A stretch of DNA of 64,000 nt from Rubrobacterales bacterium (GCA_038198445.1 JBBPZZ010000107.1:2399-66398), one strand, 5' to 3'. Shown: positions 5,331 to 36,485, counted from the stretch's first letter. Program-made: numbers and translations. The notes: generated from the sequence alone by a model not told the origin.

Positions 5331-6370
5331 GCGCCTCCTCCCATGCTCGCGCCGGTGGCGAGGCGGCGGGTAGTCTTGACGAACGTTTCGAGCGCCTCGA
5401 GAGCCGCTCCGGTGTCTATGGACTGCTCCGCGCTCCGCACGCCATCTTCGAGGGTCCCGGCTCTTCCGGAGACGAAGATCGCCGCTCCGGCGTTCATCAG
5501 GATCACGTCTCGCGGCGCCCCCTCTTCCCTGCCGGACAATACGTTCCGCAGGATGCGGGCGTTGAGGTGGGCGTCGCCGCCGAGAATTCCGTCCGGGGCG
5601 TGGCGCGGCAGGCCGAAGTCCTCCGGGGAGATCTCGTACTCCTCGATGCCGCCGTCCGAGACCTCGGCGACCTTCGTGGGGCCGCTCACCGTGATCTCAT
5701 CCATCCCGTCCGCCCCGTGGACGACGAGCGCCTTCTCCGCTCCGAGCTCCAGCAACGCCTCCGCGACCGGCCGCACGTAATCTCCGCTAAAGACCCCGAT
5801 GAGCTGGCGGCGCGCTCCGGCCGGGTTGGTTAGAGGGCCGAGCAGGTTGAAGACCGTGCGGAACGGCAGCTCGGCGCGCACCGGAGCCACGAACCGCATC
5901 GCCGGATGGTGGGTGCGGGCGAACATGAACCCGATCCCGGCCTCCGCGATGCAGCGGGAGACCTGCTCCGGCCCAAGCTCTATCTCCGCGCCAAGCGCCT
6001 CCAGCACGTCCGCGCTCCCGGCCTGGCTCGTCGCGGCCCGGTTTCCATGTTTGGCGACGGTTACTCCGGCCCCGCGCGCTACGAACGCCGCCGCCGTGGA
6101 GATGTTGATAGTACCCTTCGCGTCGCCGCCGGTGCCGCACGTATCCACCACGTCATCCGGGGCCTCGACCTTTGCGGCGAAGCGGCGCATCGCGCGGGCG
6201 AAGCCGACTATCTCCCCCACCGACTCGCCCCTAATACGCATGGCGGTCAGGAGCGCCGCTGTCGCCGCCTGCGGCACGGTCCCCTCCATGATCGTCTCCA
6301 GCGCCCGCTCCGCCTCACCCTCGGAGAGCGCCTCTCCCGACGCTACCTTTCGTAAGGGGTCGCGTAGCAT
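5327..6370 (-). CDS. trpD: anthranilate phosphoribosyltransferase
   Basis: TrpD sequence (DTCGTGGD, KHGNRA). I take the start as the ATG at 6370, 2 nt after the trpG stop. The longer 397-aa ORF would overlap trpG. Confidence 0.9.
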   Translation of the reverse strand: MLRDPLRKVASGEALSEGEAERALETIMEGTVPQAATAALLTAMRIRGESVGEIVGFARAMRRFAAKVEAPDDVVDTCGTGGDAKGTINISTAAAFVARGAGVTVAKHGNRAATSQAGSADVLEALGAEIELGPEQVSRCIAEAGIGFMFARTHHPAMRFVAPVRAELPFRTVFNLLGPLTNPAGARRQLIGVFSGDYVRPVAEALLELGAEKALVVHGADGMDEITVSGPTKVAEVSDGGIEEYEISPEDFGLPRHAPDGILGGDAHLNARILRNVLSGREEGAPRDVILMNAGAAIFVSGRAGTLEDGVRSAEQSIDTGAALEALETFVKTTRRLATGASMGGGA

Positions 6371-27023: not shown

Positions 27024-27902
27024 TTGAGTAAACCAATTTTAGACGTGCTGTTTGATTATCAACTCCGAGCGTTCGCTACTAATTACGCGGATGCTTCTCG
27101 CGAAGTGTTCTCTGATCCATTATCAGGAAAACTCTTGCATCCAGGGGAGTTTGGTGGGTTGCGGGAAAGTCTTGTAAGGAACCTACTGAAAAACTTTCTG
27201 CCTGAAAGCTTCGGTATCTCGGAAGGGTTCATCATAGCCCCAAACGGCGATATAAGTGCTCAGTGTGATGTAGTTGTTTACTCTCGACAACACTGTCCTA
27301 TCATTCAGACTGCCGAGCGGCAACGCTTCTTTCCGGTAGAAGCAGTTGTAGCAGTTGGGGAAGTGAAATCGAATGCTGATAGCAGAGATCTACGAGATGC
27401 TCTAGAGAAGATTGTAAATATAAAGAAGATGAGGGCAGAACTAACCAATGGTTCAATAGCCCGCAGCACCTTTAAGGATGTCGGTGTTTACCGACCGCGT
27501 GACCTTCTTCTAGATCAACTTGGCACATTCGTCATCGCCGAAAGCTTTTCTTGTACGGAGGCTACAGTGGCGAAACTAGTTAAGGAGACGGCGAAAGGTA
27601 AACACCCTACCTTCCAAGTCAATATGATAGTAAGCATAAACGAGTACTGTGCGCTATACCGAGATAAACAAAATCTGATCTGGATGTTTCCCGTTGATGT
27701 GGACCGTGCTAGTAATGAGATTATTCCAGTGCCTCTGCCGTTATTGTTCGCCAAGAAGAACTCAGATCGACCGCAGCATTTAAAGCTCTTCTTGAGGCAC
27801 TTGGCACTTATCACCGAGCGTGCGACGATTTTGCACACTGACTTCCTTAATTACTTCGGAAACTTGCCAGAACTGACTTACATAACTGAGTCAGATTTGT
27901 AG
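27024..27902 (+). CDS. PD-(D/E)xK nuclease-fold protein (DUF6602-like by recall) with an uncharacterised C-terminal half
   Basis: 292 aa with a TTG start 7 nt after a GAGGAG SD. Motif SAQCD82VVVY ... VGE113VK115S fits D...ExK. Codon usage is AT-rich. Confidence 0.65.
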   Translation: MSKPILDVLFDYQLRAFATNYADASREVFSDPLSGKLLHPGEFGGLRESLVRNLLKNFLPESFGISEGFIIAPNGDISAQCDVVVYSRQHCPIIQTAERQRFFPVEAVVAVGEVKSNADSRDLRDALEKIVNIKKMRAELTNGSIARSTFKDVGVYRPRDLLLDQLGTFVIAESFSCTEATVAKLVKETAKGKHPTFQVNMIVSINEYCALYRDKQNLIWMFPVDVDRASNEIIPVPLPLLFAKKNSDRPQHLKLFLRHLALITERATILHTDFLNYFGNLPELTYITESDL

Positions 27903-30887: not shown

Positions 30888-31745
30888 CTAGACGTAAGGC
30901 ACCTTTGCGGCGCGGCACTCCTCGGTGATACGCTCGCGCAGCCCATCGCCAGCCGGCAAGAGAACCGAACCCTGGTCCCCCGTCCCAACGACCATGGAGC
31001 CGTCCCGACCCTTCCAGTGACGATGGACCGTGTACGCGGCGAGAGCTCCCTCGACCAGGCTAACGGCCCGGTCGAGTTCGGCGTGAGAGAGCGAGGCGGA
31101 TATGTCCAGCTTCGAGAGGTCCACGTTCTCCGGCGCGGAGAGGTCCGCCAAGAGGTTTCCGGTTCGCAACCGCAGCCCTGGAGTGTTCCACAGGATATCC
31201 ACGGCCTCCTTCAACGCCGCCGCCCGGACTTCCTTATTCCCCTTGCGAAGTTTAGGCTCCGGCATGGCTCGCAGCTCTTTCGAAAGGTCTCCATCCTTCT
31301 TCCCGTTCCCGCGTTCGAGTGTCAGCACCTTCAGTGTCGCGGACGAATCCACCTCGGTTACGGCCCACTGGTCCCGCTGCCTCGGGAAAGGATAATCCGT
31401 GTACTGGACGTTGTTCGTCTCCAGGGCCGCGAGCACCTCCTCGGCGTAAGGTTCGCCGTCGAACATGCTACGGCTCGCGGAGTGAGCCGGCAGGGAGATC
31501 TTTGCGAGTATCCGGTGGATCCATCGCGTACCACGTTCGTTCGGCACCGCGAGCGGCGCGTCCACGCCGACGATGACCCCTCGACGGTCGGAAGCGTAGC
31601 GCTCGACGGCGCCCGCTATCTCCTCCGCGCTCCCGACGAACGAGTTGGCGATGATGCTCCCGCGCTCGTCCATCACCACCAGACACGAGGGTTTCTCCCT
31701 GGCTTCGCCCGGCCTCCACGCAAGAGCGCAGCCTATAAACCTCAT
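30888..31745 (-). CDS. DUF429/COG2410-like (RNase H-fold) hypothetical protein
   Basis: The ATG at 31745 overlaps the glmM stop (ATGA). [10 protein letters not shown]..., [16 protein letters not shown] and a C-terminal LDRAVSL..ALAA resemble DUF429. The family call is from recall. Confidence 0.55.
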
Positions 31746-33073
31746 GCCCTGACCTCCGTTCCGGCGTCCGAGACAACCTCCGAGACCTCCTCGCAGACCT
31801 CCCGGCACACGCCCTCATCCACATGCTCCACCATCACCCGCACCACCGGCTCCGTTCCACTCGGCCTGAGCAGGATGCGTCCCTCCTCGCCGAGCCGCTC
31901 CTCAGCCGCCGCGACCGCCCTGGATACCGCCTCCGACGCCGCTACGCTCTTCGCCGCGCCCGGCTCTTCCACGGCGACGTTTATGAGCGCCTGCGGATAC
32001 ACGTCCATCACCCCTGCAAGCTCTGAAAGCGGCCTGCCGCCGCGGGCCATCACGTCCAGAAGGGCGAGCGCGGTGACGAGCCCGTCTCCCGTCGTGGCGT
32101 ACCGCGAGAGGATCACATGTCCCGACTGCTCTCCGCCGACGGACGCCCCGCGCCTCCACATCGCCTCCGCGACATGCCGGTCTCCCACCGGGGTCACCTC
32201 GTATGGAATCTCCAGCGCGTCCATCGCCTTGAAGAAGCCGAGGTTGCTCATCACCGTCACGACGCCGCCGCCCGCAAGCGCGCCGCGCTCCTTCAGGTCG
32301 CGGGCGAGGATCGCAATGATCTTATCCCCATCCACCACGTTGCCCTTCTCGTCTACCGCCAGGACCCGGTCCGCGTCCCCATCGAAGGCGAACGCCACGT
32401 CATGCCCGGAAGCATCGAGGCTCTGTATATGCGTGGAACCGCACTGTTCGTTGATGTTGATCCCCGTCGGCCCGTCTCCGACAACTGTCAGATCCACGTC
32501 CAGCTCCCCGAAAGCCATCGGGGCGGCCTCGTAGGCAGCCCCGTTCGCGCAATCTAGGAATACCCTCATCCCGGCGGCCTCTGGACGCAAGCGCTTCAGC
32601 ACGCTCGCGGCGTATAGCCCCGCGGCGTCCTCCAGCTTCTCTATCGACCCGACGCCATCCGCCGTCGGGCGGTCTGAGTCTTCGCCGGTCAACCTCTCTA
32701 GCTCGTATTCCTTCTGGGAGGAGAGCTTACGTCCCTCGCCGGAGAGGAACTTTATGCCGTTGTCCGGGTAGGGGTTATGCGAGGCGCTAACGACGACCGC
32801 CGCCGCGGCCCCGAGTTGAGGCGCGAGCGCGGCGATACCCGGTGTTGGCAGGATGCCGAGGTCGATGACTTCGGCTCCGCCGCTCGCGGCTCCGGCGGCT
32901 AGAGCGCCGGAGAGCATCCCGCCGGAGAGCCGGGTGTCGCGGCCGATGAGTATCGGCCCGCCGAAAGCCTGGGCGGCGGCGAGCCCCAGCCGCAGGGCAT
33001 CCTCGGGCATGAGTCCCTTGTTGGCGACCCCGCGCATGCCGTCGGTTCCGAACGAGATTTCCCTTCGCTCCAA
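31742..33073 (-). CDS. glmM: phosphoglucosamine mutase
   Basis: 443 aa with the active-site context VVVSASHNPYPDNGIKF. Confidence 0.9.
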   Translation of the reverse strand: MERREISFGTDGMRGVANKGLMPEDALRLGLAAAQAFGGPILIGRDTRLSGGMLSGALAAGAASGGAEVIDLGILPTPGIAALAPQLGAAAAVVVSASHNPYPDNGIKFLSGEGRKLSSQKEYELERLTGEDSDRPTADGVGSIEKLEDAAGLYAASVLKRLRPEAAGMRVFLDCANGAAYEAAPMAFGELDVDLTVVGDGPTGININEQCGSTHIQSLDASGHDVAFAFDGDADRVLAVDEKGNVVDGDKIIAILARDLKERGALAGGGVVTVMSNLGFFKAMDALEIPYEVTPVGDRHVAEAMWRRGASVGGEQSGHVILSRYATTGDGLVTALALLDVMARGGRPLSELAGVMDVYPQALINVAVEEPGAAKSVAASEAVSRAVAAAEERLGEEGRILLRPSGTEPVVRVMVEHVDEGVCREVCEEVSEVVSDAGTEVRA

Positions 33074-33542: not shown

Positions 33543-33974
33543 CTACTTCACCTCGTAGGGTTGCGGGGTCTGGGCGGCGTGCGGATGCTCGGCCCCGGCG
33601 TAGATCTTCAACTTCTTGAACTGCTGGCGGGCGAGCCGGCTCTTCGGCATCATCCCCCAGACGGCTTTACGCAAGACCTCGGTAGGCTTGCGCTCCATCA
33701 TGACCTCGTAGCTCGTCTCCCTGAGACCGCCCGGATAGCCCGTATGCCGCCGGTAGACCTTTTGCTCCGCCTTCCGGCCCGTAACCTCCACCCTGTCCGC
33801 GTTCACCACGACCACGAAGTCGCCGGTATCCACGTGCGGGGTGTACTGCGGCTTGTACTTGCCGCGCAGCACTTTCGCTATCTCCGCCGCCAGACGACCG
33901 AGGGTCTGCCCCTCCGCGTCAACGACATGCCACTTACGCTCGACCTCCTGGGGCCGCGCCATGTAACTTTTCAT
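33543..33974 (-). CDS. rplM: 50S ribosomal protein L13
   Basis: The ATG at 33974 has a GGAGG SD. N-terminus [20 protein letters not shown] is typical uL13. Confidence 0.95.
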
Positions 33975-34121
33975 TATCCTCCGGAGTCCTTGCAAAGTTC
34001 AACGGAATTCCAAACGCATCAAATAGTAGCATACATCTACTGGAAGTATAGCTCCCAAGACGTTTCCGCTCTCGGAAGATAGGTAAATAATCTACCTTTA
34101 GAATACGGCTATTTGATCGTA

Positions 34122-34130
34122 TTCTTGACA
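34122..34130 (+). repeat. 9-bp direct repeat TTCTTGACA (left copy)
   Basis: Exact copy of 35033-35041. Lies 25 nt upstream of the islet ORF-A GTG. Confidence 0.4.
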
Positions 34131-34155
34131 TTAGAGAACGAAAAGGAGGAGTGGC

Positions 34156-34641
34156 GTGTACCGAGATTTCATCTATATGGACATCAATCGAGTTCAGTCG
34201 ATTATCGCCCAATTGCAACAAGGGTTGTTGAATGAAGTGTTGGAGGGAAAGACGAAACAGACAACGGGACGGATGCAGATGGCTACGAACCTGCTAGCCA
34301 TGCTACTTCCTGTCAGCGTCTCTGGGTCTGCGGAACACAGTCGGGGGTCGAGCCTTAGCGAAAGTCGAGTTCTCCACGACTATGCATTTGAGGTAGCCCG
34401 GCTTTCCCTCAAAGAAGGAGGGCTGCTTATAGAGCGCGAAAACCTCGACAGAGAAGACATTTTGGAGGAGGGTTTCGTGCTAGTACGGGGCGTCTCGCAA
34501 ATCCTCGATTATGAAACGTTTCGGAAGATAGCCGAAAACTTCGACAAACTTGATGAAAAAACCTTCAACCCCACGGTGAGCAATACAGAAAAAAGAAGCG
34601 AAGGAAGGAAAATAGCTGGGCTACCGAAGCGGGCATGTTAA
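34156..34641 (+). CDS. hypothetical protein, islet-2 ORF A (unrecognised family)
   Basis: 161 aa with a GTG start 6 nt after an AGGAGG SD. AT-rich codons. N-terminus MYRDFIYMDINRVQSIIAQLQQGLL. Confidence 0.55.
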   Translation: MYRDFIYMDINRVQSIIAQLQQGLLNEVLEGKTKQTTGRMQMATNLLAMLLPVSVSGSAEHSRGSSLSESRVLHDYAFEVARLSLKEGGLLIERENLDREDILEEGFVLVRGVSQILDYETFRKIAENFDKLDEKTFNPTVSNTEKRSEGRKIAGLPKRAC

Positions 34642-35015
34642 TCGACACATTCTATCAAGATGCGATACGGGTGAGGATTACTAATCAACAAGATTGTAGC
34701 TTCATCGGACCGCTGGCTAGAGAACACCTGCGCGAAGATATAAAGGATCTAATCTACAAGTACGGCTCCCAGCCGGAAGGTGAGTGGACCATGTTAGCGG
34801 AGATAAGTCGCGTTCCTCTCCCCAGCGACCCACTTGAAGAGTTGCCTGTTGGAGCAATGGTGCCTGAAGAGGATAGTTCGGTATCGAACCAGTTTGATCA
34901 AATAATCACGATATTCAACATGTTCCAGGAGTTTGTTGGTTCCGCAGCGTATCCAGACTTCGCTGTATCGCCTGTGGCCGTCTATAGGGAGATCTCAAAC
35001 CGCAACGAATCCTAG
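34635..35015 (+). CDS. hypothetical protein, islet-2 ORF B (unrecognised family; possibly the C-terminal part of one frameshifted gene)
   Basis: 126 aa. Its ATG overlaps the ORF-A stop as ATGTTAA. There is no clear SD in the 15 nt upstream. Confidence 0.5.
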   Translation: MLIDTFYQDAIRVRITNQQDCSFIGPLAREHLREDIKDLIYKYGSQPEGEWTMLAEISRVPLPSDPLEELPVGAMVPEEDSSVSNQFDQIITIFNMFQEFVGSAAYPDFAVSPVAVYREISNRNES

Positions 35016-35032
35016 CGGGCGATAGTTCCGAG

Positions 35033-35041
35033 TTCTTGACA
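35033..35041 (+). repeat. 9-bp direct repeat TTCTTGACA (right copy)
   Basis: Exact copy of 34122-34130. Lies 17 nt downstream of the ORF-B stop. Confidence 0.4.
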
Positions 35042-35055
35042 GCCCGAAGTCGTGA

Positions 35056-35730
35056 TCAAACGTCCAGCACGCGGGCGATGGTGAGACCGTCAATGCGCTC
35101 CCGGATCAAGGGCAACACTATGGACGAGAGCCGGGGATCTCGGGCCATGCGCTCGTTGAACTCCCTGGTAGCCCGCGCCGACTCGTCTTTCGGATCAAGG
35201 ACGCTCCCGCCCCGGATGGTGTTGTCCGCCAGGATTAGCGTTCCGGGCCGTGAGAGCCGCAAGGCGAATTCCAGGTACTCCGGGTAGCCTTCCTTGTCGG
35301 CGTCTATGAAGGTCAGGTCGAAGGGCTCGACTCCATCTTCGACCATGGCGGCGAGCAGCTCTCTCGCGTCACCAACGCGAACCTCGACCTTTCGCGACAA
35401 TCCGGCGCGTTCGATGTTCTCGCGGGCGACTTCGGCGTGGCGTTCGTCGAGTTCCAGGGAGAGCATGGTTCCTCCGTCCGGCAGGGCGCGGGCGAAGTGG
35501 ATGGCGCTGTAGCCTCCGAGGGTTCCGATCTCAAGTATCCGCCGCGCGCCAGCTATTTCCGCGAGCAATTGCAACAGCTTGCCCTCGCTCGGCGAGACGC
35601 TGATCTCCGGCAGACCAGCCTCCCGCGAGTCCCGCAGGGCAGCTTCGAGCGCCTCATCCGGCGGGGCGTAAAGGGCTTCCACGTAGGAGTTTATGTCGCG
35701 TAGCAGTTTTCCAGAATTATCTTCGCTCAT
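35056..35730 (-). CDS. class I SAM-dependent O-methyltransferase (caffeoyl-CoA OMT-like family 3)
   Basis: SAM motif ILEIGTLGGYS and metal/substrate motif FIDADKEGY. The ATG at 35730 overlaps the truA stop (ATGA). The maximal ORF starts at 35745. Confidence 0.85.
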   Translation of the reverse strand: MSEDNSGKLLRDINSYVEALYAPPDEALEAALRDSREAGLPEISVSPSEGKLLQLLAEIAGARRILEIGTLGGYSAIHFARALPDGGTMLSLELDERHAEVARENIERAGLSRKVEVRVGDARELLAAMVEDGVEPFDLTFIDADKEGYPEYLEFALRLSRPGTLILADNTIRGGSVLDPKDESARATREFNERMARDPRLSSIVLPLIRERIDGLTIARVLDV

Positions 35731-36485
35731 CTCGTGCCTTTCCATAGATCTATATCGTATTCCACGCCAACGAGCGTAAGGCCCCGGCTCGGGACGGCCG
35801 CTCCGGCCTCGCTCCGCTTTCCCCCGTAGAGTAACCGCTCGAAGTCAGCGAGGTCCCGCTTGCCGCTGGCGACTTCCAGCATGGTCCCGACCAGCGCGCG
35901 GACCATCCCGTACAGAAACGAGTTGGCGACAATATGGTAAGTCAGGAGATCCCCGCTTTGCTCCCAGCAGGACTCCGTGATTGTTCGCTCGAAGCGGATA
36001 TGGTAGCTCTTCGATGGCGTAAAAGCTCGAAAATTATGCGTGCCTATAATGAGCCGCGCGGCCTCCTGAAGCACTTCGATATTCAGCTTCCGGGCGACGT
36101 AGTTCGCGCGGTTTCTGCTCAGGGGGGACCGGATCTCATCGTTTACGATCCGGTATTCGTAGCCTCGGGTCCGAACGTCTCCGCGGGCGTCGAAACCGGC
36201 GGGTACGGCTACGCAGCGCCGCAAGGCCAGGTCTTTTGGGAGCACGGCGGTTGTCTTGTAGGAGATGAGTGATGGTGAAAGGTCCGTCTCCGCCGTGAAA
36301 GAGACGACCTGTCCGCTCGCGTGGACCCCGGCGTCCGTCCGTCCCGCGACGCTCAACTTGACCGGCTGGCGCAGCACGGTCTGGAGCGCATCAGCGAGCG
36401 TGCCTTCTACTGTCCGGCGATCCGGCTGCGCGGCCCATCCGGCGAACCCGGCTCCGTCGTACTCGATGAGGCCCGCGAACTTCAC
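35727..36485 (-). CDS. truA: tRNA pseudouridine(38-40) synthase
   Basis: 252 aa. The GTG start overlaps the ecfT stop (GTGA). Catalytic-Asp context AGRTDAGVHA. Confidence 0.9.
   Translation of the reverse strand: MKFAGLIEYDGAGFAGWAAQPDRRTVEGTLADALQTVLRQPVKLSVAGRTDAGVHASGQVVSFTAETDLSPSLISYKTTAVLPKDLALRRCVAVPAGFDARGDVRTRGYEYRIVNDEIRSPLSRNRANYVARKLNIEVLQEAARLIIGTHNFRAFTPSKSYHIRFERTITESCWEQSGDLLTYHIVANSFLYGMVRALVGTMLEVASGKRDLADFERLLYGGKRSEAGAAVPSRGLTLVGVEYDIDLWKGTR

Follow-up and report, generated by a model that had tools for sequence, protein, structure and literature searches.

The window analysed here, a stretch of 64,000 nucleotides from a Rubrobacterales bacterium (GCA_038198445.1, JBBPZZ010000107.1:2399-66398, positions being counted from its first letter), carries a low-GC insert of about 1.0 kb, which is not assigned to either strand, at 34040-35055, between the ribosomal protein gene rplM and the gene of an O-methyltransferase (OMT). 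The insert includes two overlapping open reading frames (ORFs) on the plus strand: ORF A (34156-34641, 161 aa), which starts with GTG and is preceded by an AGGAGG Shine-Dalgarno sequence at 34144-34149, 6 nt 5' of the start, and ORF B (34635-35015, 126 aa), whose ATG lies 4 nt upstream of the ORF A stop codon, so that the two share 7 nt (ATGTTAA). Both native flanking genes, rplM (33543-33974, Ribosomal_L13, Pfam E 9.7e-51) and the OMT gene (35056-35745, Methyltransf_3, Pfam E 6.8e-48), are on the minus strand; 181 nt separate the ATG of rplM from the divergent GTG of ORF A, and the OMT gene is convergent with the insert, with 40 nt between the stop codons. The lengths of the ORFs, their strand, the start signals of ORF A and the distance of 181 nt had been given in an earlier annotation made from the sequence alone (the first-pass annotation) and were all recovered in our analysis. 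That annotation, however, presented the ORFs as two genes of no known family, while our comparisons indicate that they are almost certainly the N- and C-terminal parts of one gene of the DUF6414 family (34156-35015, plus strand), split by a deletion of 1 nt and coding for 286 aa once one base is restored.

Profile searches place ORF A on the N-terminal part of the Pfam family DUF6414 (PF19952; profile positions 1-136 of 283, 47.5 bits, E 2.5e-12) and ORF B on its C-terminal part (178-283 of 283, 26.5 bits, E 6.5e-6), the gathering score of the family being 25 bits. The repaired 286-aa protein matches the same profile from end to end (1-283 of 283, 76.9 bits, E 2.8e-21), as well as phrog_9699, a family of unknown function (E 8.6e-20); neither the halves nor the repaired protein matched anything in NCBIfam, and a scan of viral contigs found no relatives. 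When intact homologues are compared with the window by tblastn, they yield two matches in different frames, which overlap at 34557-34641 in the lysine-rich middle of the protein, and the frame of ORF B is open only from 34557. ORF A comprises residues 1-146 of the family protein, followed by an out-of-frame tail of 15 aa (RSEGRKIAGLPKRAC); ORF B comprises residues 161-286 and is 51-60% identical to intact homologues over their C-terminal halves. With ORF A as the query, a protein search identified 42 relatives, mostly of 275-282 aa, several of them from metagenome-assembled genomes (MAGs) of Rubrobacter or Rubrobacteraceae; protein searches found about 170 homologues, mostly full-length (275-327 aa) and, among the relatives whose DNA was checked, chiefly from Rubrobacteraceae. 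In place of the single uninterrupted frame of about 275-330 aa, the window has 161 + 126 aa. When DNA was checked with the repaired protein, 18 loci were found to be in one frame, the exceptions being the window together with its copy in a separate Logan assembly (L002), a contig from another assembly (L001) and a low-coverage contig (L021).

The site of the frameshift is a run of six A residues at 34589-34594 (plus strand), in a lysine-rich linker of variable length, where a codon alignment with intact homologues reveals one missing base. The window reads ACA GAA AAA AGA AGC GAA where its relatives read E-K/R-K-K-R-K-K; with the base restored, the codons become GAA AAA AAG AAG CGA, i.e. EKKKR, as in the intact homologues L003 and P0005 (EKKKRKK), and one extra base within 34589-34594 restores TEKKKRRKENSWATEAGMLIDTFYQ, which is near-identical to these two proteins. 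The linker was compared in 10 other complete copies, all of which are in one frame there; the loci L018-L020, L022 and L029-L033 are in one frame over the whole protein, and only L001 has the shift in common with the window.

A confident structural model of the repaired protein, calculated with AlphaFold from an alignment of 100 sequences, has a mean predicted local distance difference test score (pLDDT) of 79.4 and a predicted template modelling score (pTM) of 0.75 (a first run with a shallow alignment of 30 sequences had given an unusable model, with pLDDT of 48). The predicted fold is of the alpha/beta type and draws its strands from both halves of the protein, with the break falling inside a predicted helix (residues 143-152) in the variable linker. 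Profile and structure searches had been proposed in the first-pass annotation; the former supplied the Pfam family, while a Foldseek search of the model against PDB and BFVD returned nothing below E 0.01 (best E 0.5 and 0.05, TM <0.25), and a profile search of PDB sequences gave only a designed helical repeat (E ~1e-3), which we judged spurious. There is no solved structure from which a mechanism could be taken over.

The foreign composition of the insert, already noted in the first-pass annotation, is evident from several measures. The G+C content of the segment 33996-35055 is 0.48 versus 0.63 in the whole window, and falls to 25 of 60 nucleotides at 34161-34220 (exact count); windows of 200 nt over 33900-35100 range from 0.41 to 0.55, with surroundings at about 0.62-0.70. 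G+C at third codon positions is 0.55 in ORF A and 0.54 in ORF B, versus 0.75-0.86 in rplM, rpsI, glmM, the OMT gene, truA and ecfT. To delimit the insert, relatives were found by a protein search with ribosomal protein L13 (its homologues in Rubrobacteraceae have 143 aa and 86-96% identity), and the contigs of the closest ones were compared. In a relative with 95% identical L13 (L026) the OMT gene and rplM are 97 nt apart, and in two with 86% identical L13 (L027 and L028) the gap is 234 and 117 nt; the OMT gene overlaps truA in the window and adjoins it in all relatives examined. The junction survey thus finds the ORFs absent from the closest relatives, and their codon usage is not that of the native genes. 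Because the junction is empty in relatives with 86-95% identical L13, we regard the insert as a real insertion and not as a fluctuation in composition. Homology with the relatives picks up again at 34039 towards rplM and at about 35067 towards the OMT gene, and the rplM leader up to 34039 is 93-94% identical to that of L026 and L023 and 87% to that of L027 (blastn). Therefore, of the span 33975-35055 originally assigned to the insert, the part from about 34040 to 35055 stands, while 33975-34039 (65 nt, minus strand) belongs to the native leader and promoter segment of rplM.

On the other hand, in three relatives with 96% identical L13 (L023-L025) the same spacer is filled by a different gene, which encodes a PDDEXK_4 protein of 367 aa (294 aa as called in L024), has a G+C content of 0.50 and matches the PADLOC candidate PDC-S26 (E 9e-85; L023 3824-4927, L024 2076-2960, L025 772-1875). 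This cargo resembles that of the window in its position, in its size of about 1.1 kb, in its low G+C content and in comprising a single gene; however, it belongs to an unrelated family with a nuclease fold and is read in the same direction as the flanking genes. Owing to the different cargo in these relatives, we consider the spacer between the OMT gene and rplM a hot spot of cargo exchange, and the presence of an insertion at such a hot spot is, in our opinion, very probable.

Sequences on both sides of the left boundary may be relevant to expression. Two motifs in the insert, CTCTCGGAAGaTaGGtaAATAG and GTtCGTATtCTTaC (34066-34140), recur upstream of the DUF6414 gene in L003 (5895-5980), L004 (about 200-280) and L031 (about 5990-6040). 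As these copies are in unrelated contexts, a promoter or leader region of about 110 nt appears to travel with the gene, and the shared motifs may represent a promoter, an operator or a leader; in the window, the putative moving region, including the Shine-Dalgarno sequence, corresponds to 34066-34155 (plus strand). Upstream of rplM, the relatives share at the boundary a promoter-like sequence CTGACC-17-TGcTACTAT (L026 4920-5000; window 33975-34050, minus strand). According to the alignment, the window has insert sequence in place of the -35-like hexamer and retains the extended -10-like element; the PDC-S26 cargo meets the rplM leader at least 11 nt farther out, so that L023-L025 retain the hexamer. 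From the alignment, this motif would be the promoter of rplM, and its alteration in the window might affect rplM expression. Scans for promoters and terminators did not exceed shuffled expectation.

Homologues of the DUF6414 gene were followed in DNA obtained from genomes, metagenomes and exact-protein look-ups, and in all 10 loci tested their G+C content is below that of the host DNA. The copies in L031 (6001-6918) and L021 (2691-3730) are situated between the gene of MurJ and the genes Metallophos-DUF2203-Dtd, and that in L019 (4807-5643) is found at the same MurJ/Metallophos site among HicB and Phd/ParE genes; this is a second recurrent site of DUF6414 genes in Rubrobacteraceae. In L021, a candidate tRNA-like sequence, read by eye, is located beside it. 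The copy in L021 has several frame changes that are possibly sequencing errors, the contig being labelled 2x. Elsewhere, the gene occurs between phaC and a gene of the XRE-type helix-turn-helix family (L003), beside an element that encodes a primase-polymerase and a nuclease of the OLD type (L018), in a region resembling an integrative element (L022), downstream of a hydrogenase operon (L029) and, in an Acidithiobacillus MAG (L030), between the genes of an Eco57I-type methylase and a BsuBI/PstI restriction enzyme, which immediately precede it, and a SLFN_AlbA_2 gene. A distant relative has been also identified in Bordetella phage vB_BaM-IFTN2 (OM293951.1; L032 4965-5813), directly downstream of the integrase, and eight related temperate phages of Bordetella avium carry a DUF6414 relative after the integrase (tblastn, 23% identity over 97% of the query), a position typical of prophage accessory ("moron") genes; a very distant relative is also present on a haloarchaeal plasmid. 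The similarity of the repaired protein to phrog_9699 and the Bordetella phage vB_BaM-IFTN protein extends over the full length; however, the sequences are very distant, and the window has no prophage. The analysis of homologue neighbourhoods, which the first-pass annotation had suggested, has disclosed genes of toxin-antitoxin (TA) and restriction-modification (RM) systems, an OLD-type nuclease and a phage integrase, and no ClpB-like partner.

The partner matters in view of Dodola, a system that is described, in the summaries given in bioRxiv 10.1101/2024.10.26.620412 and PMC11514479, as composed of a DUF6414 protein and a ClpB-related protein, with the two genes having protected Bacillus against phage SPP1 (PMC11514479). 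These summaries are our source for the facts on Dodola from Millman et al. 2022; the text of the preprint by these authors contains neither the name Dodola nor DUF6414. The window gene shares with Dodola the Pfam family PF19952 and the character of a small accessory gene in variable, defence-rich regions, but it differs in being interrupted, in belonging to an actinobacterial (Rubrobacteraceae) clade and in having as its neighbours the OMT gene and rplM, without an adjoining gene of a ClpB-like ATPase. As the partner is missing, we regard this clade as orphan DUF6414, which is within the family and outside Dodola as defined. The insert gene is an accessory gene of a catalogued family and not a new kind of system; the opinion that the locus is the strongest candidate in the window for an undescribed function thus stands as far as the mechanism is concerned, which is still blank, and does not stand for the family.

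The explanation that we favour, and consider probable as a whole, is that a mobile, defence-type orphan DUF6414 gene was acquired as a single-gene cassette and has since been broken. The cassette, comprising the gene and its own upstream region, would have been gained horizontally and would have entered the spacer between the OMT gene and rplM, which behaves in this lineage of Rubrobacteraceae like a hot spot of small cargo of the defence type. Its insert has none of the marks of a genomic island or integrative element: the ORF list holds no integrase or transposase in the region, in agreement with the earlier statement that a mobility gene is absent, a search for flanking repeats found only repeats of 10-18 nt at chance level, and scans for tRNAs and Rfam families were both empty. 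In the absence of an integrase, repeats and a tRNA, entry was most likely by homologous recombination via the conserved flanks. Later, one base would have been lost from the A-rich run in the variable lysine-rich linker, so that translation from the GTG would now stop after 161 aa and the C-terminal 126 codons would be readable only from an internal ATG. The present state would then most likely be that of a recently inactivated gene, and less likely that of a hypomorphic protein in two pieces; that the copy is currently non-functional seems to us somewhat the better supposition. As to the role of the intact protein, defence or abortive infection, as proposed in the first-pass annotation, is the most plausible class, since the family supplies a component of Dodola, a PADLOC candidate occupies the same junction in a sister lineage, and homologues occur in TA, RM and prophage-moron contexts; for the clade as a whole, the chances of a defence-type role appear to us about even.

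Several observations weigh against this explanation, and they concern both the function and the inactivation. A ClpB-like or other AAA+ partner is absent in 10 contexts (L003, L018, L019, L021, L022, L029, L030, L031, the phage and the plasmid). PADLOC-DB v2, which presumably includes models of Dodola, has no model matching the halves (E<=1), the repaired protein, the homologues P0005 and P0015 (E<=10), or P0223, P0225 and P0237 (E<=0.01). We infer that the intact protein is an accessory factor of the phage-defence or abortive-infection type only from its family and genomic company. With respect to inactivation, the window copy shows no other lesion in either half. The contig L001 (1934 bp, from GCA_030154625.1), whose copy at 1113-1934 has about 70% amino acid and 0.73 nucleotide identity to the window, displays the identical GGAAAAAAGAAGC; missing base, ATG and stop position all coincide with those of the window. 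Such a coincidence would not be expected of a recent random lesion, and it could indicate maintenance of the split form. Moreover, a search of the whole library with ORF B identified DUF6414 ORFs of 120-134 aa that consist of the C-terminal half only: P0260 on a contig of 86 kb, P0277 on one of 542 kb and P0265/P0370 (MCS7289962.1, Roseiflexus sp.) on one of 1.15 Mb.

These observations lead to the best of the alternatives, functional gene fission, in which the split allele is maintained, the 146 native N-terminal and the 126 C-terminal residues reassemble into the DUF6414 fold, and ORF B is translated by termination-reinitiation at ATGTTAA. We consider it rather unlikely. The copy in L001 is as divergent from that in the window (dS ~1.4) as the intact homologues are from the window copy, and omega between the two split copies, 0.11 for the N-terminal and 0.15 for the C-terminal half, is much like that of intact pairs; however, if the two events were independent, omega would mostly reflect the history before the lesion. 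In a neighbour-joining (NJ) protein tree, the bootstrap support for the window and L001 as sisters is only 28.5% (the nucleotide NJ tree is saturated, with dS >1), too low a value to establish shared descent and, with it, long persistence of the split form. L001 itself looks decayed, as it has no homology beyond residue 259 in any frame, about 70 nt before the end of the contig, and deviates at two conserved positions, one of them A81, which is invariant elsewhere. The window copy keeps 57 of 58 highly conserved positions (those with at least 90% conservation in 99 homologues), the sole deviation being P103L; this would suit a recent lesion as well as retained constraint, and hence also fission. 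The break falls in the most length-variable segment of the family, a point for fission; against it, the A-rich linker is an obvious hot spot of mutation and slippage. A third locus is broken in the linker (P0024 and P0247, both on one contig of 4488 bp), and the ORFs consisting of C-terminal halves come from other lineages and, in view of the lengths of their contigs, are not fragments at contig ends. Truncated family members were also considered as a sign of frequent decay and were given little weight, at least one of them, L021, being on a 2x long-read contig with several frame changes. The overlap of the ATG with the stop codon was considered as an adaptation to the split and rejected, since the intact L003 has the same ATG (M161) and the same off-frame stop. 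Further points against fission are that the predicted strands come from both halves and the break lies within a predicted helix, that ORF B has no good Shine-Dalgarno sequence upstream of its ATG, and that all other complete copies compared at the linker are in one frame.

A bolder possibility, to which we assign a rather low probability, is that orphan DUF6414 represents a self-sufficient single-gene system of anti-phage defence or abortive infection with a fold unlike that of any solved structure, and that a sub-lineage (the window, L001 and perhaps the C-half ORFs of Roseiflexus and others) keeps a split, two-polypeptide or slip-dependent form. The A-run of the linker would in that case switch a costly defence gene on and off or adjust its dosage.

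An error in assembly or sequencing, with the gene intact in the organism and the missing A an error of the consensus, is improbable in our judgement. The window derives from a metagenome-assembled contig, homopolymers are error-prone on some platforms, and family members on low-coverage contigs, such as L021, have multiple frame changes. However, the NCBI contig and the Logan assembly made separately from SRR24807094 (L002) agree in both ORFs, which makes an assembly error unlikely; the run of six A residues is also found in the unrelated assembly GCA_030154625.1, and, if short reads were used, a run of this length would be an atypical site of error.

Programmed recoding, by which a ribosomal or transcriptional slip of -1 on the A-run (GA A AAA AGA) would yield products of 161 and 286 aa, as in dnaX or the IS3 family, appears likewise improbable. 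If tRNA-Lys slipped by -1 on AAA at 34591-34593, exactly the family sequence TEKKKRRKENSW would result; the codon that follows, AGA, accounts for only 6 of 129 Arg codons in native genes of the window, as would suit a slip of a single tRNA before AGA, and the site in L001 is identical. The break shares with the dnaX/IS3-type site (A AAA AAG) its position on an A6G run and the restoration of the protein by a slip of -1. However, the heptamer that is in phase with ORF A is A AAA AGA and not the canonical slippery X XXY YYZ, so that the phase of the run does not suit tandem slippage, and six A residues are few for transcriptional slippage. The 85 nt downstream exhibit no stable, stimulatory RNA structure relative to shuffled sequences (z +0.87 in the window, -0.13 in L001), there is no Rfam match, and the complete copies of the other relatives are in one frame, without recoding and without the A-run at this site.

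Finally, a two-gene TA-like pair or a regulator of rplM or of the ribosomal operon, both proposed in the first-pass annotation, is extremely improbable: the small size and overlap of the ORFs, their divergence from rplM and the replacement of the -35-like hexamer could be read in favour of these alternatives, but the two ORFs belong to a single family domain, which nearly all relatives encode as one protein, the homologues are scattered over many unrelated sites with no tie to ribosomal genes, Pfam scans detected no DNA-binding or known toxin domain, and no result obtained here points to a regulator of rplM.

With the acquired and since broken cassette as the favoured explanation, the two-ORF locus is now defined as an interrupted orphan member of a catalogued, mechanistically blank family. 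The OMT-rplM and MurJ/tRNA/Metallophos sites have the behaviour of hot spots at which Rubrobacteraceae exchange single genes of the defence type, and they could be mined for further candidates. The common occurrence of DUF6414 without a ClpB-like partner questions the need for the Dodola partner in the activity of the family, and the repeated break in the DUF6414 linker is a point worth keeping beside the hot spots and the orphan occurrence.

Two other genes of the window deserve mention. A second low-GC islet at 27024-27902 (plus strand; G+C content 0.45, 0.46 at third codon positions) encodes a DUF6602 protein of 292 aa (Pfam E 1.9e-25), which matches the PADLOC models of PD_DExK (E 1e-34) and of the NucC endonuclease (E 3e-24); it is a standalone NucC-like nuclease beside a chorismate-binding (trpE-like) gene, with no obvious CBASS or CRISPR partner nearby. 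Downstream of glmM, an ORF of 306 aa (30888-31808, minus strand) has no Pfam match; since relatives have at the same position an ORF of 283-284 aa, likewise without Pfam matches, it appears to be a conserved, lineage-specific gene.

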